Source of the DNA: an uncultured Alphaproteobacteria bacterium | GTDB taxonomy: Bacteria; Pseudomonadota; Alphaproteobacteria; HIMB59; GCA-002718135 | Length of the DNA stretch: 64,000 bases | Direction: 5' to 3' | Assembly: GCA_902518985.1 (NCBI GenBank) | Contig: CABYIF010000002.1 | Span: forward strand, 4,660 to 68,659 | In this document: positions 563 to 42,188 of the stretch, in pieces | Position numbering within the stretch: the stretch's first letter is position 1 | Layout: the number at the start of each line of letters is the position of its first letter | Position numbers and translations under genes: made by a program | Notes under the pieces: generated by a model | What the model was told of the DNA's origin: nothing | Databases searched by the model: none | What the model saw: the letters and a program-made list of their open reading frames with translations, nothing else

Positions 563-3500
563 TAGATTTATAGAAAATTACAAAAAGAATAAAAAATTTC
601 TAGAAGAGAATCATATCTATAACGAAAAAGATGAACACGCATCATGTGGAGTAGGCTTAATTGCTTCTTTAGATGGCTCTGAAACAAGAGAAATTGTTGA
701 ACTCGGAGTACAAGCACTCAGAGTTCTTTATCACAGAGGTGCTGTTGATGCTGATGGTAAAACAGGTGATGGAGCTGGAATTCAATTATCTATCCCTAAA
801 GAATTTTTTATAGAAAAAATTGAACGAACTGGGCATAAACCAAATGATTATCCTTTTGGAGTTGGTATGATATTTTTACCAAGAACAGATTTTGCAGCCC
901 AAGAAAACGCACGCACAATAGTAGAATCCGAAATAATCAAAGAAGATCTAAAAATATATGGTTGGCGACATGTACCAATCAATTCTGCTATTATAGGTGA
1001 CAAAGCTAAAGCCACTAGACCTGAAATTGAACAAATCCTTATCTGCAATGAAAAAATGGAAGACGAAAAAGAATTTGATAATAAACTTTATATAATTAGA
1101 AAGAGAATAGAGAAGGAAATAAGAAATCAGAACATACCAGATTTTTATATTTGTTCACTTTCTTGTCAATCTATAGTTTATAAAGGAATGTTCTTAGCGG
1201 AACAACTTTCAAATTTCTATCCTGATATTCAGAAAAAAAATTTTATCTCCAGATATGCAGTTTATCATCAAAGATATTCTACAAACACATTTCCTACTTG
1301 GTCTCTCGCTCAACCATTTAGAGTAATTGCTCATAACGGAGAAATTAATACACTCAAAGGAAATAAAAACTGGATGTCTGCTCACGAACCAAGGATGCAA
1401 CATCAAAATTTTGGAAACGTTGATGATTTAAAACCAATCATAGATTCTAATGCTTCCGACTCAGCCGCTTTAGACTCAACTATTGAATTGCTTGTCAAAG
1501 CAAATCGCTCTCTTCCAATGGCAAAGATTATTACAATTCCTGAGGCTTGGGCTCACAGAAGAGACTTTCCTAAAAAATTAAAAGACTTATATGCTTATGG
1601 TGGTGCTGTTATGGAGCCTTGGGATGGACCTGCTGCTATCTGTGGAGCACATGGTGATTGGGCAATTGCTGGTATGGATAGAAACGGCTTGAGACCTATT
1701 CGTTATACACTTACAAAAAATCTTCTTATCGCTGGATCTGAAACAGGTATGGTAAAAGTTAATGAAGAAGATGTCGTTGAAAAAGGTAGAGTAGGACCAG
1801 GCCAATTAATTGCAATAAACTTTAAACAAAAAAAATTTTATAAAGATAATGAAATTAAAAAATACTTATCTGATACTAAACCATTTGGAAATTGGACTAA
1901 AAAAATTACCTACATCGATAGACTTGTTAAATCTGCAGATGAAGAATTTAGGGATTTAGACTCAGGTGATCTCCGAAAAAGAATGGCATGTTTTGCATGG
2001 TCAATAGAAGATATTGAATTAATTCTCCATCCTATGATTGCAGAAAAGAAAGAAGCAACAGGTTCAATGGGAGATGATACACCTCTTGCAGTACTATCAA
2101 ACAAATATCGAGGCCTTCATCATTTTTTTAGACAAAACTTTAGTCAAGTAACAAACCCCCCAATTGACTCTCTCAGAGAAAGAGTTGTAATGAGTCTTAG
2201 AACAAGAATAGGAAATTTAAGTAATATTCTTGATGAGAACGAAAACCAATGCGATCACCTTCAATTAAATTCTCCCGTCTTATCTATAGAGCAATTTAAG
2301 TCTATGAGAAAATATATGAGGCACACAGTTAAGGTTATTGATACTACAATGGATAAGACTGATCCTAAAAATACATTTGAAAGTGAAATTTCAAGAATAA
2401 ATAATGAAGCTGAACAAGCTGTCAGAGAAGGTTACGTTCATATTATACTAAGTGACAAGTCAATGTCTAAATCTAGAATTGCCCTTCCTATGATTTTAGT
2501 TACAAGTTCTGTTCATCATTATTTAATAAAAAATAATTTAAGAACTTTTATTTCACTAAATGTTCAATCTGCCGAATGTCTTGATGTTCATTATTTCGCT
2601 GTTCTTATTGGGGTAGGGGCAACGAGTGTAAATGCTTACATGGCTCAACAAGCAATAGCTGATAGACATAAAAAAGGATTATTTAAAAATTTAACATATG
2701 AAGAATGTGTAGAGAGATTCATTAATTCTATAAACAACGGCTTGTTAAAGACAATGAGTAAAATGGGCATATCTGTTGTAAATTCATATCGTGGCGGCTG
2801 TAATTTCGAGGCCATTGGTCTTAGCAGAAATTTAATGAGTAAATATTTTCCATCAATGAGTTCTAAAATTTCAGGAATTGGCATCAGTGGTATTGAAAAT
2901 AGATCAAGAGAGGCCCATGATAAAGCTTATGAAGAAAATATTATAACTTTGCCTATTGGCGGAAATTATCGTTACAGGTTTGGTGGAGAAAAACATGCAT
3001 TCGAGGCTCGATCAATTCATATGCTTCAAACTGCAGTTTCTTCTAACAATTATTCTTTATTTAAAAAATATTCTTCAATGGTAGATGACATGGATCCAAT
3101 TAATATTCGCGATCTTTTAAATTTCAAAAAAAATAAAGATAATAAAAATCAATCAAATAATGTTGAACCATCTCAAGAAATTAGAAAGAGATTAGTAGCT
3201 CCAGGCATTTCCCTTGGTGCATTAAGTCCAGAGGCACATGAAACACTATCTGTGGCTATGAATAGAATTGGTGCAAAATCAGACTCAGGTGAGGGTGGAG
3301 AGGATCCAGTTAGATTTAAACCTAAATCAAATGGAGATAATGCATCTTCGAAAATTAAGCAAATTGCTAGTGGACGTTTTGGAGTAACTGCCGAGTATTT
3401 AAACAACTGTGAAGAAATTGAGATTAAAGTTGCACAAGGTGCAAAGCCTGGAGAAGGCGGTCAATTACCTGGAGGTAAGGTTACAGGCTTAATTGCAAAG

Positions 3501-5072
3501 CTGAGACATTCAACAGAGGGTGTAACTTTAATTAGTCCACCACCTCATCATGATATTTATTCAATAGAAGATCTTGCTCAACTAATTTATGATTTGAAAC
3601 AAATTAATCCAAAAGCAAAAGTTTGTGTTAAACTTGTTGCTCAGTCAGGAATTGGCACTGTCGCAGCTGGTGTAGCAAAAGCAAAAGCTGACACGATTTT
3701 AATATCAGGACATAATGGTGGAACCGGTGCGAGTCCTCAAACAAGCATTAAATATGCAGGACTTCCATGGGAGTTAGGTTTAAGTGAAGTTCATCAAGTT
3801 TTATCTTTAAATAACTTAAGAGATAAAGTTGTTCTTAGAACAGATGGTGGTTTAAAAACTGGTAAAGACATTGTTATTGCCGCAATGCTTGGAGCTGAAG
3901 AATACGGCATAGGTACAGCTAGTTTAGTTGCAATGGGCTGTATTATGGTAAGACAATGCCATTCCAACACTTGTCCGGTTGGAGTATGCTCTCAAGATGA
4001 AAAGTTAAGAGAAAAATTTACTGGCACACCTGAAAAAGTTATTAATTTATTTAGTTTTATTGCTGAAGAAGTTAGAGAAATTTTATCTAACCTTGGTTTT
4101 AATTCTTTAGATGAAGTTGTTGGAAGGTCAGATCTTCTTTATCAAGTAAGTAGAGGAAGTTCAGATCTTGATGACCTTGATCTCAATCCAATCATTCAAA
4201 CAATTGACTCATTTGTAGGAAATTTTGATAGTAAAAAGAATACTATTAACAAGGTAAGCGATAGTTTAGATTTAAAAATTATTGAAGATGCAAAATCATT
4301 TTTTGATGATAACCATAAAATTGAATTAAACTATAATATTCAAAATACAGATAGAGCAATTGGAACCAGACTAGCATCTGAGATTACAACAACAAAAGGT
4401 ATGAGTGCCCTTAATGACGATTTCTTTACTGTTAATTTTCATGGATCAGCTGGTCAATCTTTTGGTGCTTGGAGTGTACAAGGTACTACATTAAGGGTTT
4501 ACGGTGATGCTAATGATTATGTTGCTAAAGGATTATCTGGAGGCAAGATTGTTATTCAGCCAAGTTCAGCTTCGACGCTTCCTTCAAATAAAAATGTAAT
4601 TATCGGAAACACAATCTTATATGGTGCAACGCGAGGAAAATTATTTGCTGCAGGAACTGCAGGTGACAGATTTGGTGTTAGAAACTCTGGTGCACATGCA
4701 GTTATAGAAGGTTGTGGAGACAACGGTTGTGAATATATGACTGGAGGAAGCGCAGTTATTCTGGGAGAAGTTGGAAACAATTTTGGAGCAGGAATGACAG
4801 GTGGTATGGCATATGTTTATGATAAAGAGGGTACACTTCCTTTAAGAATTAATCTTGAAGATATTTTTTATCAGCAACAAATGACAAATTATTGGGAACA
4901 AATATTATTTCAAAAGATTGAAGAGCATGTCAAAGAGACAAACTCTAAATATGCTCAAAATATTCTAAATAACTGGGATAATGAAAAATTATTATTCTGG
5001 CAGATTGTTCCAAAAGAAATGATATATAAATTTGATCAACCTGTCTTAATAAAAGAAGAAAAATTAGCTTAA
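555..5072 (+). CDS. gltB: glutamate synthase large subunit
   Basis: About 1500 aa. It has the Ntn-amidotransferase catalytic Cys after a short propeptide (HASCGVGLIA), an FMN domain, the 3Fe-4S motif CHSNTCPVGV and a C-terminal Gly-rich beta-helix domain. I prefer ATG 555 over TTG 549. Confidence 0.95.
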   Translation: MLNRFIENYKKNKKFLEENHIYNEKDEHASCGVGLIASLDGSETREIVELGVQALRVLYHRGAVDADGKTGDGAGIQLSIPKEFFIEKIERTGHKPNDYPFGVGMIFLPRTDFAAQENARTIVESEIIKEDLKIYGWRHVPINSAIIGDKAKATRPEIEQILICNEKMEDEKEFDNKLYIIRKRIEKEIRNQNIPDFYICSLSCQSIVYKGMFLAEQLSNFYPDIQKKNFISRYAVYHQRYSTNTFPTWSLAQPFRVIAHNGEINTLKGNKNWMSAHEPRMQHQNFGNVDDLKPIIDSNASDSAALDSTIELLVKANRSLPMAKIITIPEAWAHRRDFPKKLKDLYAYGGAVMEPWDGPAAICGAHGDWAIAGMDRNGLRPIRYTLTKNLLIAGSETGMVKVNEEDVVEKGRVGPGQLIAINFKQKKFYKDNEIKKYLSDTKPFGNWTKKITYIDRLVKSADEEFRDLDSGDLRKRMACFAWSIEDIELILHPMIAEKKEATGSMGDDTPLAVLSNKYRGLHHFFRQNFSQVTNPPIDSLRERVVMSLRTRIGNLSNILDENENQCDHLQLNSPVLSIEQFKSMRKYMRHTVKVIDTTMDKTDPKNTFESEISRINNEAEQAVREGYVHIILSDKSMSKSRIALPMILVTSSVHHYLIKNNLRTFISLNVQSAECLDVHYFAVLIGVGATSVNAYMAQQAIADRHKKGLFKNLTYEECVERFINSINNGLLKTMSKMGISVVNSYRGGCNFEAIGLSRNLMSKYFPSMSSKISGIGISGIENRSREAHDKAYEENIITLPIGGNYRYRFGGEKHAFEARSIHMLQTAVSSNNYSLFKKYSSMVDDMDPINIRDLLNFKKNKDNKNQSNNVEPSQEIRKRLVAPGISLGALSPEAHETLSVAMNRIGAKSDSGEGGEDPVRFKPKSNGDNASSKIKQIASGRFGVTAEYLNNCEEIEIKVAQGAKPGEGGQLPGGKVTGLIAKLRHSTEGVTLISPPPHHDIYSIEDLAQLIYDLKQINPKAKVCVKLVAQSGIGTVAAGVAKAKADTILISGHNGGTGASPQTSIKYAGLPWELGLSEVHQVLSLNNLRDKVVLRTDGGLKTGKDIVIAAMLGAEEYGIGTASLVAMGCIMVRQCHSNTCPVGVCSQDEKLREKFTGTPEKVINLFSFIAEEVREILSNLGFNSLDEVVGRSDLLYQVSRGSSDLDDLDLNPIIQTIDSFVGNFDSKKNTINKVSDSLDLKIIEDAKSFFDDNHKIELNYNIQNTDRAIGTRLASEITTTKGMSALNDDFFTVNFHGSAGQSFGAWSVQGTTLRVYGDANDYVAKGLSGGKIVIQPSSASTLPSNKNVIIGNTILYGATRGKLFAAGTAGDRFGVRNSGAHAVIEGCGDNGCEYMTGGSAVILGEVGNNFGAGMTGGMAYVYDKEGTLPLRINLEDIFYQQQMTNYWEQILFQKIEEHVKETNSKYAQNILNNWDNEKLLFWQIVPKEMIYKFDQPVLIKEEKLA

Positions 5073-5803: not shown

Positions 5804-5832
5804 CTTTGATACAAATACTTATATTTAATAAA

Positions 5833-6960
5833 ATGTCATCATTTAATGTCGCTCAAATAATTCCATCCTTAGAATCTGGTGGTGCAGAAAGAGGCACTAT
5901 TGATGTTTCTAATTATTTATCTGAATTAGGAATCAATAATAATATTATATCTAATGGGGGACGTTTATTAAATGAAACTGATAAAAATTTAACAAATCAT
6001 TTTAAATTATCAGTAAACTCAAAAAACTTTATAACCTACCCACTTATTGCCAGTAGAATTAACAAAATAATTAGTAAAAATAATATTAATATTGCCCATA
6101 TTCGATCAAGAGGTCCTGCCTGGATATTACGTTTTGTTAATACTAGGAATATAAAAACAATTTCAACTTTTCATAATGTTTATTCTGGTACATCATTTTT
6201 AAAAAAAATTTATAATAAACAACTTGCTAATGTAGATAGAATTGTAGCTATATCTGATTATGTTAAAAATGAAATAATCAACAAATATAAAATAGATAAA
6301 CAAAAGTTGGAGGTCATAAATAGAGGAGTGGATGTTGATTATTATGATAGAAAATTTTCTGATGATCTTGTTAAATATTTCTTAAATAAAAAGTCAATTA
6401 ATCCAAATAAAAAAATAATTCTTTACCCTGCAAGATTAACTAATTGGAAAGGCCATATTGAATTTTTAGATGTATTTAAAAAATTTAATAATGAAAATTA
6501 TTTTTTATATCTTGTTGGAGACACAAAAAATAAATCTTATACTGAAAGAGTCAAAAATAAAATTAATGACCTTAATTTAACAAATAACTGTCAAATTTTA
6601 GGAAATCTTAATAAAGATGATTTAAAAATTATGTACTATTTATCGTCAATAATTGTGTCACTTCCTTTACAACCAGAAGGGTTTGGAAGAATAGTCGGTG
6701 AAGCACTAGTGATGAGAAAAAAATTATTAGCATTTAATTTTGGTGGAGTTAAAGATCAATTAAATGGGTTGGATGATATCTATAAAGCTGAACCATTAGT
6801 ATATGATAATCTTCACTTAAAGCTTCAGGATCTGGCAGAAATTGATAATGAAAGATTTTTAGATATATCTAACAATAGTAGAAATCACATTATTAATAAT
6901 TTTTCAAAAGAGCAGATGGTAAAGAAATATTTTAATTTATATGAAAAAATCTCAGTATAA
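5833..6960 (+). CDS. glycosyltransferase family 4 (GT-B, LPS/envelope)
   Basis: The N-terminus has the PSLESGGAERG motif and the C-terminal half has the EGFGRIVGEA (E-x7-E type) motif. ATG 5833 is preferred over TTG 5806. Confidence 0.7.
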   Translation: MSSFNVAQIIPSLESGGAERGTIDVSNYLSELGINNNIISNGGRLLNETDKNLTNHFKLSVNSKNFITYPLIASRINKIISKNNINIAHIRSRGPAWILRFVNTRNIKTISTFHNVYSGTSFLKKIYNKQLANVDRIVAISDYVKNEIINKYKIDKQKLEVINRGVDVDYYDRKFSDDLVKYFLNKKSINPNKKIILYPARLTNWKGHIEFLDVFKKFNNENYFLYLVGDTKNKSYTERVKNKINDLNLTNNCQILGNLNKDDLKIMYYLSSIIVSLPLQPEGFGRIVGEALVMRKKLLAFNFGGVKDQLNGLDDIYKAEPLVYDNLHLKLQDLAEIDNERFLDISNNSRNHIINNFSKEQMVKKYFNLYEKISV

Positions 6961-7876
6961 TAATATCTTAGTTGTAAAACATGGTTCTCTTGGTGATATA
7001 GCATTTTCATTGTTGGCTATGGCAACAATTCGGAAATATTTTAATGACTCAAAAATAGATTTAATTACAGAGAGTAAATATAAAAATTTGTTGAAGAAAT
7101 CAGATAATTTTGACTCAATTATTGAGGACAGTCGTAAAGGATTTTTAAATACTTTAAAGGTAATATTCAAAATATATAAAAATAAATATGACCTAATAAT
7201 TGACCTGCAGAACTCAAAAAGAACAAATTATTACTGGCTATTATTAAAATATTTTTCTAAAAGTAAAATTAATGGCTCAAGATCAAATTGTGGTATTAGG
7301 TATAAAATTCCTCAGCAAGGAACTGAATCTCCTCAAAAAGGCTTATATAATCAGCTCAGACTATTAGGTATAAATGAAATATCAGATGATCTTGGATGGC
7401 TTGAAACAAATACAGATAAGATATCAGAAGATAAAATAATAATGTTTATTCCCGGTGTTTCAAACTCAGGAAAATATAAACAATGGTCTTCAAAAAAATT
7501 TGCAGAACTTGCAAAAATTCTTGAAAATAAAAATTATAAAATTTGTGTTGTAGGCCAGGATAGTGATAAAAAAATAATAGATATAATAAAGAAAAACTGT
7601 AGAAAAATAATTGATTTGACTGGTAAATCACCTCCTGAGATTATCTATTCAATTGCAAAAAAAAGTCATTTAGTTGTAAGCAATGATACTGGTCCAGGTC
7701 ATATTGCTGCTCTTAGTAAAACAAATACTTTATTTTTAGCGCTGGATAATATGATTTCTGAATCAAATTTATCAGAGTATAAAAATGCATTTAAGATCCT
7801 TAGTAAATCTATGGACACAATATTAGTTGAAGATGTTTTAAATTATATAGATCAAAACAAACTAATTAATGAATGA
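6941..7876 (+). CDS. glycosyltransferase family 9 (heptosyltransferase-like, LPS core)
   Basis: It has the N-terminal HGSLGDIAFSL motif and the C-terminal SNDTGPGHIAA motif characteristic of GT9. Confidence 0.7.
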   Translation: MKKSQYNNILVVKHGSLGDIAFSLLAMATIRKYFNDSKIDLITESKYKNLLKKSDNFDSIIEDSRKGFLNTLKVIFKIYKNKYDLIIDLQNSKRTNYYWLLLKYFSKSKINGSRSNCGIRYKIPQQGTESPQKGLYNQLRLLGINEISDDLGWLETNTDKISEDKIIMFIPGVSNSGKYKQWSSKKFAELAKILENKNYKICVVGQDSDKKIIDIIKKNCRKIIDLTGKSPPEIIYSIAKKSHLVVSNDTGPGHIAALSKTNTLFLALDNMISESNLSEYKNAFKILSKSMDTILVEDVLNYIDQNKLINE

Positions 7877-8878
7877 ATTTAATTTCTCTTCAAAATTATC
7901 TTCATTAAATATCAGTTTTGTATATTTTTTTCTCCAAGGAGCATATTCTTCTGAAATCATTTCTGGCAAATTATCAGCATCATAAATTACACAAAGTTTA
8001 CAATTTGTAAGTGAAGCTATATGAGTACATCCACATTCAGGCGTAATTACATAAGTTGAAGAATTGATTATAGATGTCCAATTATTAAAATCTAATTCTT
8101 CTAAAATTAATATTCCATTTATTTCTTTGAGATTTATAAAATCATCATTATTAATATGTTTATATTCTTCATAAATTTTACTAAAAACCTTTTTTGTAGA
8201 TTGATCACTAGTCATAACTATATTCCTACCAGTATGTTTTAATTTATTTAATAAATTAATAAAATGATCTTCCAAGAAATATCTATTTATCCATTTGGAT
8301 GAAAGATGAATTAAACATATTTCTTTATGACCATAATTTCTTTTATCAAATTGAAACAAATAATTAATTAACTCATTTTCAAGAAGTTTTAAGCCACTTT
8401 GTTTGACTAAATCTTGCATTAATTTACTTTGATTGATTGATTTATTTTGCTTAAAATATGAATTCCTATTCACAATTTTGATGTTATTAAAAAATATTTT
8501 ACAAAAAATTCTCTCAATTAATTTACTGAATATCCCAGATTTATATCTTGATTGTAATATGAGTAATGATTTAGACTTACTTTTTGAAAATATTGATATT
8601 ATAATGCTTATCCATCCGGGGCTAAACGAGTAAATATAATCATAATTTTGTTTTCTTAGGAGTCTAATAGTACTCAATATATTGGATAATTTTCTATTTA
8701 ATAAAAATAATTTATTAATGACTGAAATATTTTTACATACTTTTAAATTATTATCTGAACAAACAACATCGATAATATTTTCTTCGTTAGCTTTTTTTAA
8801 ACCTTGAATAACAGGAAGAGTTAGTATCATATCTCCCATTTTATCAATCCTAACAACACAAATTTTCATAAAGTTCAC
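7862..8878 (-). CDS. glycosyltransferase family 9-like protein
   Basis: The N-terminus RIDKMGDMILTLPVIQGLK and the C-terminal TPECGCTHIAS motif resemble GT9. It is divergent from the family, and its 3' end overlaps the previous GT9 gene by 15 nt. Confidence 0.6.
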   Translation of the reverse strand: MNFMKICVVRIDKMGDMILTLPVIQGLKKANEENIIDVVCSDNNLKVCKNISVINKLFLLNRKLSNILSTIRLLRKQNYDYIYSFSPGWISIIISIFSKSKSKSLLILQSRYKSGIFSKLIERIFCKIFFNNIKIVNRNSYFKQNKSINQSKLMQDLVKQSGLKLLENELINYLFQFDKRNYGHKEICLIHLSSKWINRYFLEDHFINLLNKLKHTGRNIVMTSDQSTKKVFSKIYEEYKHINNDDFINLKEINGILILEELDFNNWTSIINSSTYVITPECGCTHIASLTNCKLCVIYDADNLPEMISEEYAPWRKKYTKLIFNEDNFEEKLNSFIN

Positions 8879-9024
8879 AAAATATTTCTAATCAATACAA
8901 TTCTTTTTTAAATCAGGTCTTGAATTTAAATTCATTTGAGATTATATCCTAACAAAATATGAAAAAAGACTCAATTTCCTAATATGCTATTAAATAATAG
9001 CTTTAACACAATCTCAATATAATC

Positions 9025-9564
9025 TTGGCTGTAAATTTCAAATCAAAGAAAGATATTGGTCCTAGAATCAATGAGCAAATTACTGCAAGTGAGGTAAGAC
9101 TGATATCAAGTAATGGTAAGCAGCTTGGTATTTTAAGTATTCGTGAAGCTCTTATACAGGCGGAAGATGAAGGTTTTGATCTAGTTGAGGTATCTCCTGA
9201 AGCCAATCCACCAGTATGTAAAATAATAGACTACGGAAAACTTAAATATAGAGAACAGAAAAGTAAAAAAGAGGCAAAGAAAAAACAAAAAACAATAGAA
9301 GTTAAAGAAATTAAAATGAGACCTGGAATTGATACTCATGATTATAACGTCAAAGTTAAGGCACTTTCTAAATTTATTGGGGGTGGAAATAAGGTAAAAG
9401 TTTCTATGCGCTTTAAAGGAAGAGAGATGGAACACCAAAATTTAGGCTTTAATTTGTTAAAGAAATTAACAAATGAGGTTGAAGAATACGCTAAGGTAGA
9501 GGTTGCTCCTAAATTTGAAGGAAAGCAGATTATGATGATATTAGTACCACAAATAGTAAAATAG
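9025..9564 (+). CDS. infC: translation initiation factor IF-3
   Basis: There is strong similarity over the full length (RINEQITASEVRLI..., NPPVCKIIDYGK, the IKMRP...D linker and the C-domain). No in-frame ATG or GTG is available between the upstream stop (9004..9006) and the conserved N-terminus. Start candidates are TTG 9025, ATC 9022 and ATA 9019. Confidence 0.9.
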   Translation: MAVNFKSKKDIGPRINEQITASEVRLISSNGKQLGILSIREALIQAEDEGFDLVEVSPEANPPVCKIIDYGKLKYREQKSKKEAKKKQKTIEVKEIKMRPGIDTHDYNVKVKALSKFIGGGNKVKVSMRFKGREMEHQNLGFNLLKKLTNEVEEYAKVEVAPKFEGKQIMMILVPQIVK

Positions 9565-15515: not shown

Positions 15516-16169
15516 TTAGTTATTAAAATCTTTTATCAAATCATAATCATCTTGATATATTTTTTTTATTTTTTTATTTTGATTTGTATCAAGAGATATC
15601 TCAAATTTTCCACCACCTAATTGTAATCTAGGAAAAATAATTTCCTTTTGAAAAAAACTATTAATTTTTTTTACAAATAAACTAACATCACTTGTATTAG
15701 CGATTATATCAAAATATTTTAAATCATTTCCAAGCCAATAATTTTGGGGTAAAAAATGTCTATTCTCAAAAATATTATTCTCTAATTTTTCAATTACTAA
15801 GTCAATTGAATGATTTTTAAATGCAATATCTTGATGATAAAGTATTCTATTTTTATAAGCTGAAATAAAACGTTTAATAGGATCTCTTACCAAACAGCAT
15901 TTTATATCAACCTCTATTTTTTGAAATTTAGTGTATGATGGCAAAAAGTGAATTATATCTTTTTTGTCTTTATATTTTTTATGAACTTCCTCTGTTTGTA
16001 AATACCTTGGTAAATCATTATCCAAATTGTAAAATTTATTTTCAAGACCTAAATGTTTTATTAGAAAAAGTTTAACAGAAGAATTTGCATTTTTTGCTAC
16101 AGGATAATAAGCTAATTTTTTTTTTGTATTTGGATTAGTTATTATTAAATAGTTAATTTTGTTTGCCAT
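15516..16169 (-). CDS. PAPS-dependent sulfotransferase family protein (Sulfotransfer_2-like)
   Basis: It has a 5'-PSB-like loop (YYPVAKNANSSVK) and a 3'-PB-like motif (VRDPIKRFISAYKNR). ATG 16169 is preferred over TTG 16178. Confidence 0.6.
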   Translation of the reverse strand: MANKINYLIITNPNTKKKLAYYPVAKNANSSVKLFLIKHLGLENKFYNLDNDLPRYLQTEEVHKKYKDKKDIIHFLPSYTKFQKIEVDIKCCLVRDPIKRFISAYKNRILYHQDIAFKNHSIDLVIEKLENNIFENRHFLPQNYWLGNDLKYFDIIANTSDVSLFVKKINSFFQKEIIFPRLQLGGGKFEISLDTNQNKKIKKIYQDDYDLIKDFNN

Positions 16170-16325
16170 AATTATCAATTAAATTTAGCATTTATTAGTA
16201 ACTAATGAAATAATATGATAAAATTAAATTTATTTAATTGTCAAATCAGAATTTTTTACAACTTAATTACAAATAGTTTCATTTATAGACTAATATATTG
16301 TAAGAAATTTTAGAAATTTTAAACA

Positions 16326-16415
16326 GGAGAGATGTGAGAGTGGTTTAATCAGCACGCTTGGAAAGCGTGTGTAGTAGCAATATTACCGAGGGTTCGAATC
16401 CCTCTCTCTCCGCCA
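16326..16415 (+). tRNA. tRNA-Ser (anticodon GGA), encoded CCA
   Basis: Acceptor GGAGAGA/TCTCTCC, anticodon arm CACGC-TTGGAAA-GCGTG, long variable arm, T-arm GAGGG-TTCGAAT-CCCTC, discriminator G followed by CCA. It aligns closely to the E. coli tRNA-Ser(GGA) architecture. Confidence 0.9.
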
Positions 16416-16431
16416 TAAATTAATATTTTTC

Positions 16432-17133
16432 TTAATCTTTAATTTTTGAAAAAAAGGAATACTTTAAAATACAATATATAGCTCTAAAGCCGTCTTGCCA
16501 TGTAATTTTTTTTCCTTCACTATAATCTCTTCCATAATAGTTTATACCTATTTCATAAAATTTACACTTCATTTTTGAGAGTTTAATTGTCATTTCCGGC
16601 TCCACACCAAACCTATTTTCTTTTATATCAATTTTTTTAAAGAATGAACTTTTAATAGCTTTGTAACATGTTTCCATATCGCTTAGATTTAAATTTGTGA
16701 AAAAATTACACAGATGTGTAAGAACAAAGTTACCAATTCTATGCCAAAATAATAATGATCTTGACTCACCATAACCTTTAAATCTTGATCCATAAACTAC
16801 ATCAGCCTTACCATCTAATATAGGTTTGATTAATCTTACATGTTCAATTGGGTCATACTCTAAATCTGCATCTTGTATTAAGCATATATCGCCAGTTATA
16901 AACTTTGAAGCAGTTTTTAGACATGCTCCCTTACCCTTATTAATCTCATGTTTTATTATTTTAATTTCTGAGTTACTTTTAAATTTTTTCAATTTCTCTA
17001 AAGACTTATCGGTTGAGCAGTCATCTACAACTATAATTTCCTTATTGGAATATTGATTGTCTAAAACTTTTTCTAATATTAGTTCGATAGTCTGTTCTTC
17101 ATTATAAACTGGAATAATTATTGATAATTTCAT
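16432..17133 (-). CDS. glycosyltransferase family 2, polyprenyl-phosphate glycosyltransferase type (DPM1/ArnC/GtrB-like)
   Basis: It has IIIPVYNEE, VVDDCSTD and QDADLEYDP motifs. At 233 aa it is the soluble DPM1-like size. The start overlaps the upstream gene's stop (TAATG). Confidence 0.75.
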   Translation of the reverse strand: MKLSIIIPVYNEEQTIELILEKVLDNQYSNKEIIVVDDCSTDKSLEKLKKFKSNSEIKIIKHEINKGKGACLKTASKFITGDICLIQDADLEYDPIEHVRLIKPILDGKADVVYGSRFKGYGESRSLLFWHRIGNFVLTHLCNFFTNLNLSDMETCYKAIKSSFFKKIDIKENRFGVEPEMTIKLSKMKCKFYEIGINYYGRDYSEGKKITWQDGFRAIYCILKYSFFSKIKD

Positions 17134-18062
17134 TACTTATTTTTAAAATAATCTATCGTTTTTTGAAGTCCATTTTCTAACTTTACCTGTCGATTCCAAT
17201 TAAGTAGTTTTTTTGCTAAATATAAATTAGGTTTTCTTTTTATTGGATCATCTTCAGCCTTTTCAACATTTACTATTTTGCTTTTTGAATTTGTTAATTT
17301 AATTATCTTCTTTGCTAGATTATAAATGGTAATTTCATTATCTGATCCAATATTAATTGGACCTTGTATAGCCATCTTCGAATTCATTAATTTAACTAAA
17401 CCTCTAACTGTATCTGATACATAACAAAAAGATCTAGTTTGTTTGCCATTACCATGAATAATTAGTGGATTTCCTTTTAATGCCGACAAAATAAAATTAC
17501 TTACAACTCTGCCATCGTCATTATTCATATTGGGGCCATAAGTATTAAAAATTCTAGCAATTTTGATGTTTATTTTATGCGTTCTATAATAGTCAAAAAA
17601 AATCGACTCTGCTAATCTCTTTCCTTCATCATAACACGCCCTTACGCCAATAATATTTACATTACCCCTGTAACTTTCGTCCTGAGGGTGAATCAAAGGA
17701 TCACCATATACTTCACTTGTAGAGGCTTGGAAAATTTTAGCATTATTTTTTTTAGCTAGCTCTAGCAAATTAATTGATCCAAAAATATTGGTTTTAATCG
17801 TATCAAGAGGATTTTTTTGATATTTTTTTGGTGAAGCTGGGCAAGCTAAATTATAAATTTCATCACATTTAAGAGTAATTTTTTTTTGAACATTCTGCTT
17901 AATAAAAGAAAAGTTTTTATTTTTACTTAAAATTTCAATATTTTTTTTACTTCCAGTGAAGTAATTATCTAAACAAATAACTTTATTATTTTTCAACAAA
18001 CTCTGACATAAGTGAAAGCCTATAAAACCAGCTCCACCCGCAACTAAAATTTTTTTTTTCAT
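17133..18062 (-). CDS. UDP-glucuronate decarboxylase (UDP-xylose synthase), SDR family
   Basis: It is collinear with UXS enzymes: GGAGFIG, CLDNYFTGSKKN, ASTSEVYGDP, ACYDEGKR (Y-x3-K), RIFNTYGP, DGRVVSNFI, DDPIKRKP. Confidence 0.85.
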   Translation of the reverse strand: MKKKILVAGGAGFIGFHLCQSLLKNNKVICLDNYFTGSKKNIEILSKNKNFSFIKQNVQKKITLKCDEIYNLACPASPKKYQKNPLDTIKTNIFGSINLLELAKKNNAKIFQASTSEVYGDPLIHPQDESYRGNVNIIGVRACYDEGKRLAESIFFDYYRTHKINIKIARIFNTYGPNMNNDDGRVVSNFILSALKGNPLIIHGNGKQTRSFCYVSDTVRGLVKLMNSKMAIQGPINIGSDNEITIYNLAKKIIKLTNSKSKIVNVEKAEDDPIKRKPNLYLAKKLLNWNRQVKLENGLQKTIDYFKNK

Positions 18063-18109
18063 TTAACAAAATTTATGTATATAAATATACTTATTACACT
18101 ATAAATAAA

Positions 18110-19570
18110 ATGAAAGAAGTTAATTTTATATTTGAAAAAAAATACTATATTTTATTTTTAATTCTTTTTCTTAGTTATGTTTTAACAGCTATTAATAGTG
18201 TAGGGTTTTATAAAGATGATGAACATTTTCAAATACTAGAGCCATTAGCTTATTTATTGGGTATCAACACCACATTAATAGATGACCCAACTGGTTATTA
18301 TTGGGAATGGACATCTGGATATAGAATTAGACCATGGTTTCAGCCTTTTTTCTATTATCAAATAATATCTCTTGTAAAGCAATTAAATATTAACGATCCT
18401 TTTATTTGGGCATTGGTCTTGAGAATTTTTAATGGTACTTTGGGGCTTATAAGTGTTTTTATTCTTTTTTTCTCATTAAAAAAATATTTTGTTAAAGATG
18501 AAAGGATACAATATTATGTTATTTTTTTTACATTTTGGTTTTATCCTTTTTTACATGTAAGAACTTCATCAGAGTCTCTTAGTATAACCTTATTTACAAT
18601 CACAGTTCCATTTTTTTTAAATCTTTTTGAGTCAAAAATAATAAAATTCCAAATATACAAAGTAGTATTTTTTGGTTTCATTCTTGGTTTAGCTATAGTT
18701 GTAAGACCACAAATTATATTTACTATATTTCCTTTTTTTTTATGGTTTGTTTTCTTTAAATTTCACTTTTATAAGTTATTTATAACATCACTAGGTATTT
18801 TGATATCTATTTCTGTTGGACTATACGTCGATTATTTGAATTGGGGATACTTTACAAATACATATTGGCAAATTTTTCAAGTTCAAATTTTGAGTGGTCA
18901 AATGCAAGGTTTCGGTCATAAGCCTTGGTGGTTTTATTTTATTACAATATTGAAAGATCTATCTCCAGGATTTAGTTTATTTTTTATTATAGGACTTTTT
19001 ATTTTTTCTATCAAAAAAATTAATAATATTTTTACCTGGATGACACTAGGAACAATAATAATTCTTTTATTTTTTAAGCACAAAGAAACCAGATTTATTT
19101 TTCAAATATATGTTTTATCTCCCTTTTTTGTTATGTATTTATTAAGTATTGTATCTAACAATAAATTAAAAAATTTAATTTTTTATTTGTCCTTTATATC
19201 TAATGTAATTTTTTTATTAATAATTTGCTTACTACCAGCTAATAATAAAATTCATTTATATAAAAATATATTTTATGAAAATCTTACTGACTCAAAAATT
19301 TATTACGCAGGCAACAATCCTTACATGATTAATAATTTAGAACCAACATTTTATACAAATTTTCTTCCTGAAATAGATGAATTTAATAATTCTATAAATT
19401 TAAATAAATTTTATTTTGTTACAAATAATTATACAGAGCTAGAAAATATAAAAAAGAAATATAGTTGTAATATTAAGTTTAGCTCCTATCCACAAAAAAT
19501 ATTAGAAATTAATAAAACATTAACTAAACGTAATATGAATTGGTATATACTAAGTTGTGAAAAAACTTAG
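18110..19570 (+). CDS. GT-C fold integral-membrane glycosyltransferase (GT22/ALG9-PIG-B-like motif)
   Basis: The 486-aa protein has many predicted TM segments. The first extracytoplasmic loop carries DDEHFQILEP (nt 18215..18244), which resembles the HPDExFQxxE signature of polyprenyl-phosphate-sugar-dependent GT22 enzymes. Confidence 0.55.
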   Translation: MKEVNFIFEKKYYILFLILFLSYVLTAINSVGFYKDDEHFQILEPLAYLLGINTTLIDDPTGYYWEWTSGYRIRPWFQPFFYYQIISLVKQLNINDPFIWALVLRIFNGTLGLISVFILFFSLKKYFVKDERIQYYVIFFTFWFYPFLHVRTSSESLSITLFTITVPFFLNLFESKIIKFQIYKVVFFGFILGLAIVVRPQIIFTIFPFFLWFVFFKFHFYKLFITSLGILISISVGLYVDYLNWGYFTNTYWQIFQVQILSGQMQGFGHKPWWFYFITILKDLSPGFSLFFIIGLFIFSIKKINNIFTWMTLGTIIILLFFKHKETRFIFQIYVLSPFFVMYLLSIVSNNKLKNLIFYLSFISNVIFLLIICLLPANNKIHLYKNIFYENLTDSKIYYAGNNPYMINNLEPTFYTNFLPEIDEFNNSINLNKFYFVTNNYTELENIKKKYSCNIKFSSYPQKILEINKTLTKRNMNWYILSCEKT

Positions 19571-21543
19571 TTTTTTTGACACCAGAACTGATACATCCCA
19601 GCAAATATTCTAGGATTGTTAGCTTCAAATTTATCCCATAGTTTAAGATTATACAAATCATTAACATCATTGTGAGTTGCTCTAAATAAATTTAATAATT
19701 CTTTATTTTCAAATCCACAAAATTTTAAATTTAGTTTATTTATATATTTTGATATTTCTGGAATTGTAAATCTATATTCTTGAATATGAAAAAGTAAGTC
19801 TCTGAAATTGCTTAAAGAATAAAAATCAGGACTTTTTTTTATTAATTCATAATCACTTTCATTTGATAGTATAATTTTTTCTCTAAAATTTTTTAAGTTT
19901 ATTTCATTTATTTTGATTTTAAGTTTTTTAATATCTAATCGAATTCGCTCAATATGTTGTCTTGCAATTTTACTATATAAACCTATCATTATTAATCCAT
20001 GTTTATTCAATACATTGTATAGTTTTTCTAGTCCGTTGTAGGGATTTTCCATATGATGTAATACACCAACACTTTCAATAATATCGTAATTTTGTCCAAT
20101 TTTTTCTATATCTAATATATCCATTTGAACAAATTCTATGTTTTTTATTTCCAATTCCTCAGCTTTTCTTTTGGCATAACTTAAACTATTGGCGCTAAGA
20201 TCAATTGCAGTAATAAATGAATTTTGAAATTTTGTTGCTGTAGTAAGTGCATGTTGACCAGTTCCACATCCTGCCACTAATACATCTATATTTTTCCAAT
20301 TTATAACTTTATCATTGTTGACTCTTAAATCTAGTTTATTAAAAAAATCTATTGGTTTATCTTTATTTTGTTTTAAAGCAATATTTTGATATCTTGGATA
20401 GGGGTTATCTTCGTACTGATCTTTTACTTTTAAAGATATTACATTTTTAATTACTTTGGATTCTAATTTTTTTCTAATATCCTTTTCTTTTTGTGGTTCT
20501 AAAATTTGAAGCTTTATCAAAATTGATATTTCTTTAACATTAGATATATTTGCAGCCCATTTGTAAATGTGCAATGGTTTATATGCAGCTATACATGTTA
20601 TTTCTAATAAAAATTCATTAGAATTTTTATTTGTCAATTCATTGCTAATAATTTCTTCGAGTTTATTTATACTTTCTTCTTCTTCGTTTGTTTTAGGATA
20701 TAAATATTCATTTAAAAAACATTGTGTAGCTATTAGACTCATTAATTGTGACGCTTTTTTTTTATTTTTTATTAAAGATATATTTAACAAAATATTAGTT
20801 CTTAAATACCTTAAGGCATTTTCAATTTGGATATCTGTAATAGGTACAATTTTTAGTAATTTAATTAGTATTTTTATATTTAAAAATTTATCAATTAATT
20901 GTTCCAATGAATATACATGCTTGTTATCCTTTAAATTTTTAATAATTAAATGAAATTTATCATCTAAATAAAGATAATTTATTAGAGGATTTATAATATC
21001 TATCGGTCTTAATATTTTATCATGTTCTAGTAAATTAATAATGTGTTTTTCTAAAATATTGGAATGTTTAGAAAATTTAAAATTTTGTAAACAAACACCA
21101 AAGTTTTGTAGTGCAATTAAATAATTAGGATTTATTTCTAAACAATGTAAATAATTTTTAATAGCTAATTCTTTTTCATTTTTATCTTTGTATATGTTGC
21201 CCAAATTATTGTAAGCTTCAAACTTTAGTGGATTAATTACTAAACATTTTTTATAATGATCAATGGCATTTTCTATTTTATTAATTTTTTTATAGACTAT
21301 TCCCAAATTATAATGACTATCTGCAAAGTTTTGATTAATTTCTAAAATTTTTTTAAAATTAATAATTGCTTCACTAAAATTTCCTATTTGATTATTTGTA
21401 TTTCCAAGAAGATTTAAAAGAAAAATAGATTTTGGAAAATATTCTTTAAGATTGTTAATTTTTTTTATTAAATTATTAAAATTATTAGAATTATAAATAT
21501 TTATTAATTCATTTCTAACTTTTAATTCAGGCTCATTGTTCAT
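19567..21543 (-). CDS. TPR-repeat / class I SAM-dependent methyltransferase fusion protein
   Basis: The N-terminal ~170 aa hold repeated TPR-like units (A..Y/F..AI..NP.. pattern). The C-terminal region has SAM motif I VLVAGCGTGQHAL and a post-I acidic residue (AIDLS). The middle ~250 aa are unassigned. Confidence 0.7.
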   Translation of the reverse strand: MNNEPELKVRNELINIYNSNNFNNLIKKINNLKEYFPKSIFLLNLLGNTNNQIGNFSEAIINFKKILEINQNFADSHYNLGIVYKKINKIENAIDHYKKCLVINPLKFEAYNNLGNIYKDKNEKELAIKNYLHCLEINPNYLIALQNFGVCLQNFKFSKHSNILEKHIINLLEHDKILRPIDIINPLINYLYLDDKFHLIIKNLKDNKHVYSLEQLIDKFLNIKILIKLLKIVPITDIQIENALRYLRTNILLNISLIKNKKKASQLMSLIATQCFLNEYLYPKTNEEEESINKLEEIISNELTNKNSNEFLLEITCIAAYKPLHIYKWAANISNVKEISILIKLQILEPQKEKDIRKKLESKVIKNVISLKVKDQYEDNPYPRYQNIALKQNKDKPIDFFNKLDLRVNNDKVINWKNIDVLVAGCGTGQHALTTATKFQNSFITAIDLSANSLSYAKRKAEELEIKNIEFVQMDILDIEKIGQNYDIIESVGVLHHMENPYNGLEKLYNVLNKHGLIMIGLYSKIARQHIERIRLDIKKLKIKINEINLKNFREKIILSNESDYELIKKSPDFYSLSNFRDLLFHIQEYRFTIPEISKYINKLNLKFCGFENKELLNLFRATHNDVNDLYNLKLWDKFEANNPRIFAGMYQFWCQKN

Positions 21544-40149: not shown

Positions 40150-41259
40150 ATGATAGTAATCCTAACTCAGTGTTTTCCATCTAAAATAGGTGGTATAGAA
40201 AATTTAATATTTAATTTAAGCTATTATTTAAGTAAAAATAATAAAGTAATAGTTCTCGCTGATCAACATAACATAATTAAAGATACAATATTTGATAACA
40301 AGTTTAAAAATAATTTTTTAGTAAAACGTTTTGGAGGTATAAAATATTTTAGAAAAAGAAATAAAATTAGAGAACTAGAAAAAATTATTAATTTTAAAGA
40401 GGTTAAAGCAATTATCTGTGATAGTTGGAAAAGCTTGGAAGTTCCTATAAAAAAATTTAAAAATATAAATCTACCATTTATTTGTTTAGTTCATGGTAAT
40501 GAAGTAATAATAAAAAATAATAGACATCACACAAGGATATTAAATTGTTTTAATAATGTTAATAAAATTGTATCCAATTCAGAATTTACAAAAAATTTAG
40601 TTAAAAAAATTAATCCTGAGCTAAAAAATATCATAGTTATAAATCCAGGAGTTTCAAATTTCGATGAGATAATAGAGGAGGAAGTAAAATTAATTGATGG
40701 TAAACCCACTTTACTAACTCTCGCAAGGCTTGAGAAAAGAAAAGGTCACGAACATATTTTAAAAGCTATAGTTAAATTGAAAAAAAAATATCATAATATT
40801 CGTTACATAATTGCTGGAGAAGGCAAAGAAAGAAGCTATCTTGAATCTTTGGCATGTTCATTAAATATTTCTGAAAATGTAATGTTTATTGGTTCAATCA
40901 ATGATGGGCAAAAAAAATTTATATTAAAAAAAACTAACTTAATGATTATGCCCACACTAGATGAGTCAAAAAAATCATCTATTGAGGGATTTGGTATTAC
41001 ATATATTGAGGCAGCTTTGTTTGGTATTCCATCAATTGCTTCAAATGTAGGTGGTACAAAAGAAGCTGTATTGCATAATGAAACTGGAATTATAATAGAT
41101 AACTTAGATAAACTTGAAATTGCTATTGTAGATTTAATAGAAGATAATATTAAAATGAAAAAATTAGGAGAAAAAGCAAAAGAAAGAGCAGAAATCCAAT
41201 TGTCTTGGACTAATATAATCAAAGATTACAATAAGCTTATTGATGAGGTAAATTTATAA
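40150..41259 (+). CDS. glycosyltransferase family 4
   Basis: The N-terminus has PSKIGGIEN and the C-terminal half has EGFGITYIEAALFGIPSIAS (E-x7-E). Confidence 0.75.
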   Translation: MIVILTQCFPSKIGGIENLIFNLSYYLSKNNKVIVLADQHNIIKDTIFDNKFKNNFLVKRFGGIKYFRKRNKIRELEKIINFKEVKAIICDSWKSLEVPIKKFKNINLPFICLVHGNEVIIKNNRHHTRILNCFNNVNKIVSNSEFTKNLVKKINPELKNIIVINPGVSNFDEIIEEEVKLIDGKPTLLTLARLEKRKGHEHILKAIVKLKKKYHNIRYIIAGEGKERSYLESLACSLNISENVMFIGSINDGQKKFILKKTNLMIMPTLDESKKSSIEGFGITYIEAALFGIPSIASNVGGTKEAVLHNETGIIIDNLDKLEIAIVDLIEDNIKMKKLGEKAKERAEIQLSWTNIIKDYNKLIDEVNL

Positions 41260-42188
41260 TGTCTATTTTTTTTTATTGTAATTTTAAGAATAAAAAACAA
41301 TGGTTAAATTCTATTAATAAGAAATTTCCAAAACATAAAGTTTTTACAATTAAAGATAAACCAGACTTTTCAAAAATTAAGTACGCTATTGTTTGGAACC
41401 TTCCAGATACTATTATGAAAAAACTAAAAAATGTAAAAATATTTTTTTCTTTAGGAGCTGGCGTTGACCATATAATTAATTTGCCAAGTTATAATAAAAC
41501 ACCAATTGTTAGAGTTAAAGATATTAATATGGCTGAGAGAATGTCTTACCATGTTCATTCACAGATATTAACATATCAATTAAAACTTTATTTATTTCAA
41601 AAAGCTCAAATACAAAAAAAATGGCTAGGTGAACAAAACACTAAACTAAATAAAGATATTACAATTGGTATAGTTGGATTGGGTTTTCTCGGTAATTATG
41701 TTGCTGATTACCTTTATAATTTAAATTATTCAGTACTTGGTCTTAAAAGAGAAATTAGACAAAAAGAATCAAAAATTAAAATTTTTACAGAGAAAAATTT
41801 AAATAAATTTCTCAATTTAAGCGATATTGTTGTTTCTATCTTGCCTGACACCAAAAAAACTAAAAACTTAATAAATAAAAAATTTTTAAATTTAATGAAA
41901 AAAAATTCTTTTCTTATAAATATTGGAAGAGGGAGTACACTAAATGAGCATGATCTATTATTACATTTAAATAAAAATAAAAACTTTTTTGTATCATTAG
42001 ATGTTTTTAAAACTGAGCCATTGCCAAAAAATAATAAATTTTGGACACAAAAAAATGTTATAATTACTCCACATGCCGCAGCATTAACGGATATAGACTC
42101 ATCAATTGATTTAATGGTTAATAGATTTAAACATTTCAAAAAAACTGGAAAGATTAAATCTGATGTAAATTTAATCAAAGGGTATTAG
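41259..42188 (+). CDS. D-isomer-specific 2-hydroxyacid dehydrogenase (glyoxylate/hydroxypyruvate reductase A-like)
   Basis: It has the NAD motif GIVGLGFLG, NIGRGS..., D..E and TPHAAA. The start overlaps the GT4 stop (TAATG). Confidence 0.75.
   Translation: MSIFFYCNFKNKKQWLNSINKKFPKHKVFTIKDKPDFSKIKYAIVWNLPDTIMKKLKNVKIFFSLGAGVDHIINLPSYNKTPIVRVKDINMAERMSYHVHSQILTYQLKLYLFQKAQIQKKWLGEQNTKLNKDITIGIVGLGFLGNYVADYLYNLNYSVLGLKREIRQKESKIKIFTEKNLNKFLNLSDIVVSILPDTKKTKNLINKKFLNLMKKNSFLINIGRGSTLNEHDLLLHLNKNKNFFVSLDVFKTEPLPKNNKFWTQKNVIITPHAAALTDIDSSIDLMVNRFKHFKKTGKIKSDVNLIKGY

Follow-up and report, generated by a model that had tools for sequence, protein, structure and literature searches.

A divergent GT2/GT22 gene pair coupled to a UDP-xylose synthase: a candidate lipid-carrier glycosylation cassette in an uncultured alphaproteobacterium

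Several described glycosylation systems, namely Gtr (GtrA/GtrB/GtrV), Arn (ArnC/ArnE-F/ArnT), PpgS/Rv3779 and RgtE/RgtA-D, share the same logic, in which a family 2 glycosyltransferase (GT2) loads a polyprenyl phosphate with a sugar and a membrane glycosyltransferase of the GT-C type transfers it outside the cytoplasm. In pentofuranose three-component systems, the GT-C adds a pentose linked to undecaprenyl phosphate (Und-P), xylofuranose included, in that same extracytoplasmic location (Kelly et al. 2024, PMC11127046). Among the GT-C families, GT22 has so far been characterised in the eukaryotic endoplasmic reticulum (ER) alone, in the assembly of N-glycans and glycosylphosphatidylinositol (GPI). 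In its members ALG9 and ALG12, an acidic residue located on the first helix of extracytoplasmic loop 1 (D82 and E35, respectively) is the catalytic base, R370 of ALG9 binds the donor phosphate, and an asparagine (ALG9 N288, ALG12 N247) helps to orient the donor mannose and is required for activity (PMC13503287). Literature searches turned up nothing on what GT22 proteins do in bacteria, and no report of xylose linked to Und-P or dolichyl phosphate (Dol-P) and made from uridine diphosphate xylose (UDP-Xyl) was found in the searchable literature. This study concerns three adjacent genes, encoding a UDP-xylose synthase (UXS), a GT2 and a GT22, in a 64-kb stretch of contig CABYIF010000002.1 (the window, at its full length) from an uncultured alphaproteobacterium. 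We lean towards reading them as a cassette for lipid-carrier periplasmic glycosylation operating via UXS, GT2 and GT22 with xylose as the sugar; the generic form of this reading, in which a GT2 producing a polyprenyl-phosphate sugar feeds a GT-C, is highly probable.

The GT2 gene (16432..17133, minus strand, 233 amino acids (aa)) and the UXS gene (17133..18062, minus strand, 309 aa) meet at a minus-strand junction reading ...AAT AAG TAATG AAA..., so that the UXS stop codon and the GT2 start codon share one base. An AT-rich divergent spacer of 47 nt (18063..18109) separates UXS from the GT22 gene (18110..19570, plus strand, 486 aa). Coordinates, TAATG overlap and spacer are all as the original prediction gave them, and every motif that it quoted is present in the translations (GGAGFIG, STSEVYGDP, YDEGKR, RVVSNFI, DDPIKRKP, VVDDCSTD, QDADLEYDP and DDEHFQILEP). 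The three open reading frames (ORFs) are not products of chance, as they score 116.9 bits against PF00535 (Glycos_transf_2) for the GT2, about 160 bits against PF16363 and PF01370 (GDP_Man_Dehyd, Epimerase) for the UXS and 115.2 bits against PF03901 for the GT22. They belong to a low-GC island (15516-21543) with a GC content of 23.4%, compared with 28.8% for the whole window.

Judged by its sequence, the 309-aa protein is a UDP-glucuronate decarboxylase/UDP-xylose synthase, predicted to convert UDP-glucuronate (UDP-GlcA) to UDP-Xyl, as had been proposed. It matches human UXS1 (4gll) over its full length (residues 2-308, 51% identity, E-value 1.7e-99), and the catalytic motifs STSEVYGDP, CYDEGKR and QTRSF (S/T-x-E, Y-x3-K and R) are intact. 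A different pentose would be lipid-linked if this short-chain dehydrogenase/reductase were not a plain UXS and yielded another UDP-pentose or a 4-keto-pentose, as may be suspected from its homology to decarboxylases of the ArnA and U4kpxs (UDP-4-keto-pentose synthase) types, whose NCBIfam models it matches weakly (113 and 96 bits). Those scores, however, fall far under the respective cut-offs of 777 and 294; the full-length identity to UXS1 and the intact motifs also speak against such an activity, and the island contains no aminotransferase, formyltransferase or 4-epimerase gene, the first two of which had been declared missing from the outset. We regard this alternative as improbable.

For the GT2, the only full-length sequence match in the Protein Data Bank (PDB) is the Pyrococcus dolichyl phosphate mannose synthase (DPMS; 5mlz, E-value 4e-19). 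Its AlphaFold (AF2) model, with a predicted local distance difference test (pLDDT) score of 90.3, has DPMS, ArnC or GtrB structures as all of its top 18 PDB fold matches, with template modelling (TM) scores of 0.62-0.80, those for DPMS and ArnC being 0.76-0.80. The DxD motif (Q87-D88-A-D90) is invariant across 48 homologues. By both sequence and fold, the protein groups with lipid-carrier GT2s of the DPM1/ArnC/GtrB type and not with processive ones, in agreement with the class first assigned to it. Its highest-scoring NCBIfam models are AglJ, PgfS, PpgS and ArnC, all under their equivalog thresholds (112 bits against a cut-off of 325 for AglJ, 53 against 370 for PpgS, 49 against 529 for ArnC); on such scores, the GT2 is orthologous to no characterised polyprenyl-phosphate GT2. 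There is no hydrophobic segment in its 233 aa, which end in an amphipathic helix (212-228), and as it lacks the transmembrane helices of GtrB and ArnC, its organisation resembles that of DPM1 and PpgS. The enzyme is predicted to move a sugar from a UDP-sugar to Und-P.

The 486-aa protein is a true GT22-type GT-C by hidden Markov model, fold and catalytic motifs, and the initial suspicion of a GT-C membrane transferase close to GT22, as opposed to a non-glycosyltransferase family, proved correct. The PF03901 domain (Glyco_transf_22, "Alg9-like mannosyltransferase family") spans residues 16-388, with a score well above the cut-off of 23.8 bits, and is found in 91/91 homologues. A single-sequence search of the PDB gave no match and a profile was required; built from 20 homologues, it retrieved ALG9 (2.5e-12) and ALG12 (1.4e-10). 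The AF2 model (pLDDT 93.3) has as its top Foldseek matches ALG12 (9s6t, E-value 1.7e-8, TM-score 0.60) and ALG9 (9s6u, E-value 2.6e-6, TM-score 0.67), followed by ArnT, PglB, oligosaccharyltransferase (OST), PMT and AftB. D37 and E38 align with ALG9 D82/E83 and ALG12 E35/E36, and both residues show no variation across 20 sequences, their conservation in a set of 69 being at least 90%. In the H324-K-E-T-R328-F motif (HKExRF), H324 corresponds to ALG9 H366 and R328 to ALG9 R370, while K325, E326 and R328 are invariant. An alpha/beta domain at the C-terminus (approximately 395-486) is the counterpart of the luminal domain of ALG9/12. The donor-orienting asparagine is absent, its place being taken by Q259; glutamine occupies this position in all five UXS-linked GT22s, and asparagine in all 13 of the non-linked ones checked.

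Two homologues (P0071 and P0072 in alignment A2) have valine where the donor-orienting residue lies, which may point to a third class of donor. Moreover, the C-terminal domain contains two cysteines, C453 and C483, that hardly vary among bacterial GT22s and, going by this conservation, likely form a periplasmic disulfide. The genomes of at least 512 bacterial species encode relatives of the GT22, and the hosts include SAR11-like single-amplified genomes, Bdellovibrionota, Bacteroidota, Calditrichota, Ignavibacteria, Binatia and Gemmatimonadales. Carriage by phages in the manner of Gtr was considered and dismissed, no GT22 relatives having been found in the IMG/VR viral contigs.

The three genes co-occur in all the close relatives examined (loci L001/2, L003, L085 and L170-172). 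On a broader scale, the idea of a three-gene module survives in part: the pairing of GT2 and GT22 holds, but UXS is not a fixed member and belongs to one cassette class only. Wherever a SAR11-like locus contains a GT22, a gene for a GT2 of approximately 233 aa stands directly divergent to it; the two lie mostly by lepA and tRNA-Ser, and at other chromosomal sites too. From the gene order, the conserved core appears to be this divergent pair, swapped as a cassette. Class A of the GT2s comprises the window and L085 (94% identity), L170 (76%) and L002/3 (64%), class B1 is nearest to PgfS and GtrB, and class B2 to AglJ. Among SAR11-like cassettes UXS is confined to class A, more distant relatives having other GT2 classes without it. 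In class A, it is always placed between GT2 and GT22 with an overlap of 1-4 nt onto GT2, which is kept in the window, L085, L002/3 and L170-172. The GT22 co-diverges with the GT2 class: the class A GT22s checked are at least 52% identical to that of the window, those of class B 34-45%. The low GC content and strain variability of the island, the presence of other modification genes and the mosaic nature of Pelagibacter islands (bioRxiv 10.64898/2026.04.03.716430) might suggest that nothing functional connects the three genes and that they are passengers which a hypervariable surface-polysaccharide island has assembled by chance. The trio travels as a unit, however, in either orientation with respect to lepA and between different flanks, its start/stop overlaps are conserved, and the linkages of GT2 with GT-C genes and of UXS with GT2 both recur across phyla, which makes mere chance vicinity very improbable.

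The family of the class A GT2 yields more than 8000 matches, with about 60% identity across phyla. Outside SAR11 its neighbours include polytopic proteins of the PMT_2, PMT, GT87, STT3/AglB and Wzy_C families and GtrA flippases, and in 23/72 metagenomic loci of the family a polytopic protein with six or more transmembrane segments is encoded next door. These GT-C and GtrA neighbourhoods strongly support a role as polyprenyl-phosphate-sugar synthase. S-adenosylmethionine (SAM) methyltransferases are the commonest neighbours (11/140), and one is also present in L010. UXS is the only recurring nucleotide-sugar enzyme in the census of 140 neighbours. In an organism with 64% GC (L175/176), a UXS (55% identity) forms an operon with a GT2 and a GtrA gene, with 4-nt overlaps and no other glycosyltransferase; UXS is also directly upstream of GT2 in L092 and L094, and near GT2, beside a GT87, in L103.

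Bdellovibrionota carry GT2 orthologues (47-54% identity) within about 5 kb of a GT22. In Halobacteriovorax, one GT2 lies amid three PMT_2, a GT87, a GT22 and a methyltransferase, and other members of the phylum have two or three tandem GT22 paralogues. As an observation in its own right, five to six GT-C genes surround a single GT2 orthologue, together with a methyltransferase, in Halobacteriovorax and Bacteriovoracaceae (L010 700-11400; L014; L043 4600-16100; L011 8500-17000; L020 160-2900). These arrays look like an assembly line for multi-step extracytoplasmic glycan synthesis and recall the ER lumen or the making of mannan in mycobacteria.

The scheme that we propose joins the families and folds of the three proteins, the conservation of their catalytic residues and the patterns of gene linkage with a sugar, an anomeric outcome, a flippase and an acceptor that we infer. 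In the cytoplasm, UXS would turn UDP-GlcA into UDP-Xyl. The co-translated soluble GT2 would then, at the inner membrane face and with inversion as in other enzymes of the DPM1/GtrB/ArnC type, place xylose on Und-P, producing Und-P-beta-xylose, and a flippase encoded outside the cassette would carry this product across to the periplasmic side. There, with Asp37 in the first periplasmic loop acting as base and Arg328 of HKExRF holding the leaving phosphate, GT22 would act with inversion to pass the xylose to its acceptor; this is most likely a glycan anchored in the membrane, for example lipopolysaccharide (LPS), capsule or another lipid-linked oligosaccharide. Nothing came to light in support of lipid A/core specifically, which had been named among the possible acceptors.

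The carried sugar is probably xylose, a part of the original prediction that stands as far as gene linkage and one active-site substitution bear on it, while the use of Dol-P-mannose (Dol-P-Man) by the characterised members of GT22 speaks against it. Xylose is the best-supported candidate because the coupling of UXS to GT2 recurs in unrelated high-GC lineages and the GT22 has glutamine at its donor-orienting position. In addition, the UXS-GT2 pair is retained in two loci where another polytopic protein, DUF8201, stands in for GT22 (L173/174), and SAR11 is known to use UDP-GlcA, the substrate of UXS (PMC8231724).

A number of observations weigh against xylose and the complete pathway. All characterised GT22s use Dol-P-mannose (PMC13503287), and the majority of the GT2 family, at 50-60% identity, is encoded away from any UXS. 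Residues common to the UXS-linked GT2s of independent lineages were sought and none was diagnostic, so that the GT2 sequence itself is no pointer to xylose; at all 13 SAR11-specific positions, the high-GC UXS-linked GT2s have the family consensus. Monophyly of the UXS-linked GT2s is ruled out, as they fall into two clusters and one singleton. The change from asparagine to glutamine in GT22 took place once, in one clade, and a glutamine-type GT22 with 43% identity (P0019; L177 208-1856 and L178) has no adjacent GT2 or UXS, its neighbours being a cupin and a sugar C-methyltransferase-like gene; its contigs and the UXS-GT2-DUF8201 contigs L173/174 share their two metagenome samples of origin. Finally, neither a GtrA-like ORF with at least three transmembrane segments, as a candidate flippase, nor a UDP-glucose dehydrogenase (Ugd) motif is present in the 64-kb window.

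Part of this evidence fits a different account, according to which GT2 and GT22 move a common hexose, mannose or glucose, via Und-P-hexose, in the way of characterised GT22, GT87 and GT39 enzymes, and UDP-Xyl serves another cytoplasmic transferase acting on the same glycan. Such a role is what the donor preference of the characterised GT22s would predict (PMC13503287); the GT2 is closest to archaeal DPMS, no xylose-specific residues were found in it, and most members of its family are without an adjacent UXS and paired with families of the mannose-donor type (PMT, GT87, GT22). On the other hand, overlaps of 1-4 nt between UXS and GT2 exist in at least three unrelated lineages, including the UXS-GT2-GtrA operon devoid of any other glycosyltransferase; in SAR11-like cassettes, UXS appears only alongside the switch of GT2 class and the replacement of N by Q at the donor-orienting residue of GT22; and the island has no second glycosyltransferase able to use UDP-Xyl. 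A hexose is, on this balance, unlikely, and we keep to xylose as the favoured sugar. More tentatively, and with a little less than even confidence, we put forward a wider proposal: that Und-P-xylopyranose, made from UDP-Xyl by a soluble DPM1-like GT2, is an undescribed bacterial donor, that bacterial GT22s use it or other Und-P-sugars on the cell surface, and that cassette swapping at tRNA-Ser diversifies glycans.

The site of the cassette is marked by a tRNA-Ser(GGA) gene (16326..16415, plus strand, detected with ARAGORN), which lies between the GT2 and sulfotransferase genes, forms the island boundary and stops 17 nt short of the stop codon of GT2; both the tRNA and the low-GC island had been overlooked at first. 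In relatives, the cassette is found in both orientations relative to lepA, on either side of tRNA-Ser and in different flanks. The homology between the window and L085 stops exactly at the GT2 stop codon, the GT22 islands of L002-L007 and L084 have tRNA-Ser(GGA) at their flank, and partial copies of the tRNA are present in L003 (4156-4231, 5448-5550 and 5830-5944) and L085 (9077-9164), while L170 has the tRNA on the opposite side of the cassette (3389-3512). Given the two orientations, the end of the L085 homology and the partial tRNA copies, the tRNA-Ser(GGA) gene is likely a hotspot of integration or recombination. No integrase was seen, and no second tRNA-derived attachment (att) repeat exists within the window, where the other repeats are AT-rich chance matches. 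The replacement of the cassette by alternative GT2/GT22 pairs in relatives fits a diversification of surface glycans, for example as phage receptors.

In place of GT22, a polytopic DUF8201 protein is encoded opposite the UXS-GT2 pair beside lepA in L173 (1346-2866, minus strand) and L174 (2968-4443, minus strand), and a further copy occurs in L170 (1526-3322, plus strand). The three copies have 10-13 hydrophobic segments, those of L173/174 having 10-11, and no similarity to the GT22 profile was detected; DUF8201 may be an unrecognised glycosyltransferase family.

Next to the cassette in the window, a sulfotransferase gene (15516..16178, minus strand, 220 aa; Sulfotransfer_2, PF03567, 39.4 bits against a cut-off of 22) may possibly encode an accessory glycan-modifying enzyme. 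Unrelated sulfotransferases are also located beside GT2/GT22 modules in L001 (3664-4302), L082 (2079-2933) and L174 (545-2263), the recurrent types being Sulfotransfer_2, Sulfotransfer_1 and a fusion of tetratricopeptide repeats (TPR) with a sulfotransferase; their recurrence hints that the glycan is sulfated. On the other side, a gene for a 658-aa protein with TPR and a class-I SAM methyltransferase domain (19567..21543, minus strand) is convergent with GT22, with a 4-nt overlap. Its product is 85% identical in L085 and 39-41% identical in L002, L006 and L007, and it diverges fast, the 39-41% being reached between genomes whose LepA is 95% identical; it is another possible accessory of the cassette. 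A 128-aa ORF antisense within this gene (20567-20953, plus strand) is probably spurious. Directly downstream of a class-B GT22, L084 has a UbiA-family prenyltransferase-like gene (8452-9285, minus strand), which could be the polyprenyl-phosphate phosphoribosyltransferase of a pentofuranose pathway.

The island is flanked on one side by lepA-pheTS-rplT-rpmI-infC, preceded by GT9 and GT4 genes, and on the other by an operon for an oligopeptide-type ATP-binding cassette (ABC) transporter. A conserved block of glycosyltransferase, IF-3, bL35, L20 and PheRS genes is described in a preprint on the Pelagibacter pangenome (bioRxiv 10.64898/2026.04.03.716430). The agreement with this block, a GC content of 29% and nearest relatives among marine single-cell genomes of uncultured Alphaproteobacteria suggest that the source of the window is SAR11-like. 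Upstream of the infC block, the window contains a GT4 and two GT9 (heptosyltransferase-like) genes (5806-8878), and a second low-GC patch (40150-42188, 23% GC) carries a GT4 and a 2-hydroxyacid dehydrogenase gene. A promoter scan gave 52 matches against 50.7 expected, a background level that is uninformative in AT-rich DNA; a terminator scan was likewise at background level, and alignment of the divergent spacers revealed AT-rich conservation and nothing more.

If the proposed pathway is true, Und-P-xylose from UDP-Xyl would be a new lipid-linked donor in bacterial glycobiology, and the cassette would provide the first functional handle on bacterial GT22s. The natural difference between asparagine and glutamine at a donor-handling residue offers a direct test of GT-C donor specificity. 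Exchangeable GT2/GT22 cassettes in one of the most abundant groups of ocean bacteria could alter phage receptors, and the multi-GT-C arrays of Bdellovibrionota bear on the evolution of multi-step extracytoplasmic glycan assembly.

Compared with known systems, the locus combines familiar parts in an unusual arrangement. It resembles ArnA-ArnC in that a dedicated nucleotide-sugar enzyme is co-encoded with the GT2, and GtrB and ArnC in the fold of the GT2 itself, although GtrB, ArnC and archaeal DPMS have C-terminal transmembrane helices which the GT2 of the window lacks, as do DPM1 and PpgS. Three-component systems bearing GtrA or ArnE/F have a dedicated flippase, of which there is none in the window, and their GT-C belongs to GT83 or Gtr-type families, here replaced by GT22; the sugar predicted here also differs, being an unmodified xylopyranose derived from UDP-Xyl. 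The pentofuranose systems (PMC11127046) start from phosphoribosyl pyrophosphate (PRPP) and make their donor with a UbiA-type phosphoribosyltransferase together with a phosphatase and an epimerase; they yield a furanose, whereas the route here, from UDP-GlcA to UDP-Xyl to GT2, would result in a pyranose. With human UXS1 and bacterial UDP-xylose synthases, no difference is evident at the sequence level, given the same catalytic motifs and the 51% identity to the human enzyme; what is unusual is the context, namely the translational coupling to a polyprenyl-phosphate GT2. ALG9 and ALG12 (along with PIG-B and PIG-Z) share with the GT22 of the window the PF03901 domain, the first-loop catalytic acid, the HKExRF motif and the C-terminal extramembrane domain, and are its nearest solved folds; the protein of the window differs in being bacterial, in its identity of 14-15% and in having glutamine for the asparagine N288, and where ALG9 and ALG12 use Dol-P-Man, its donor is predicted to be Und-P-xylose.

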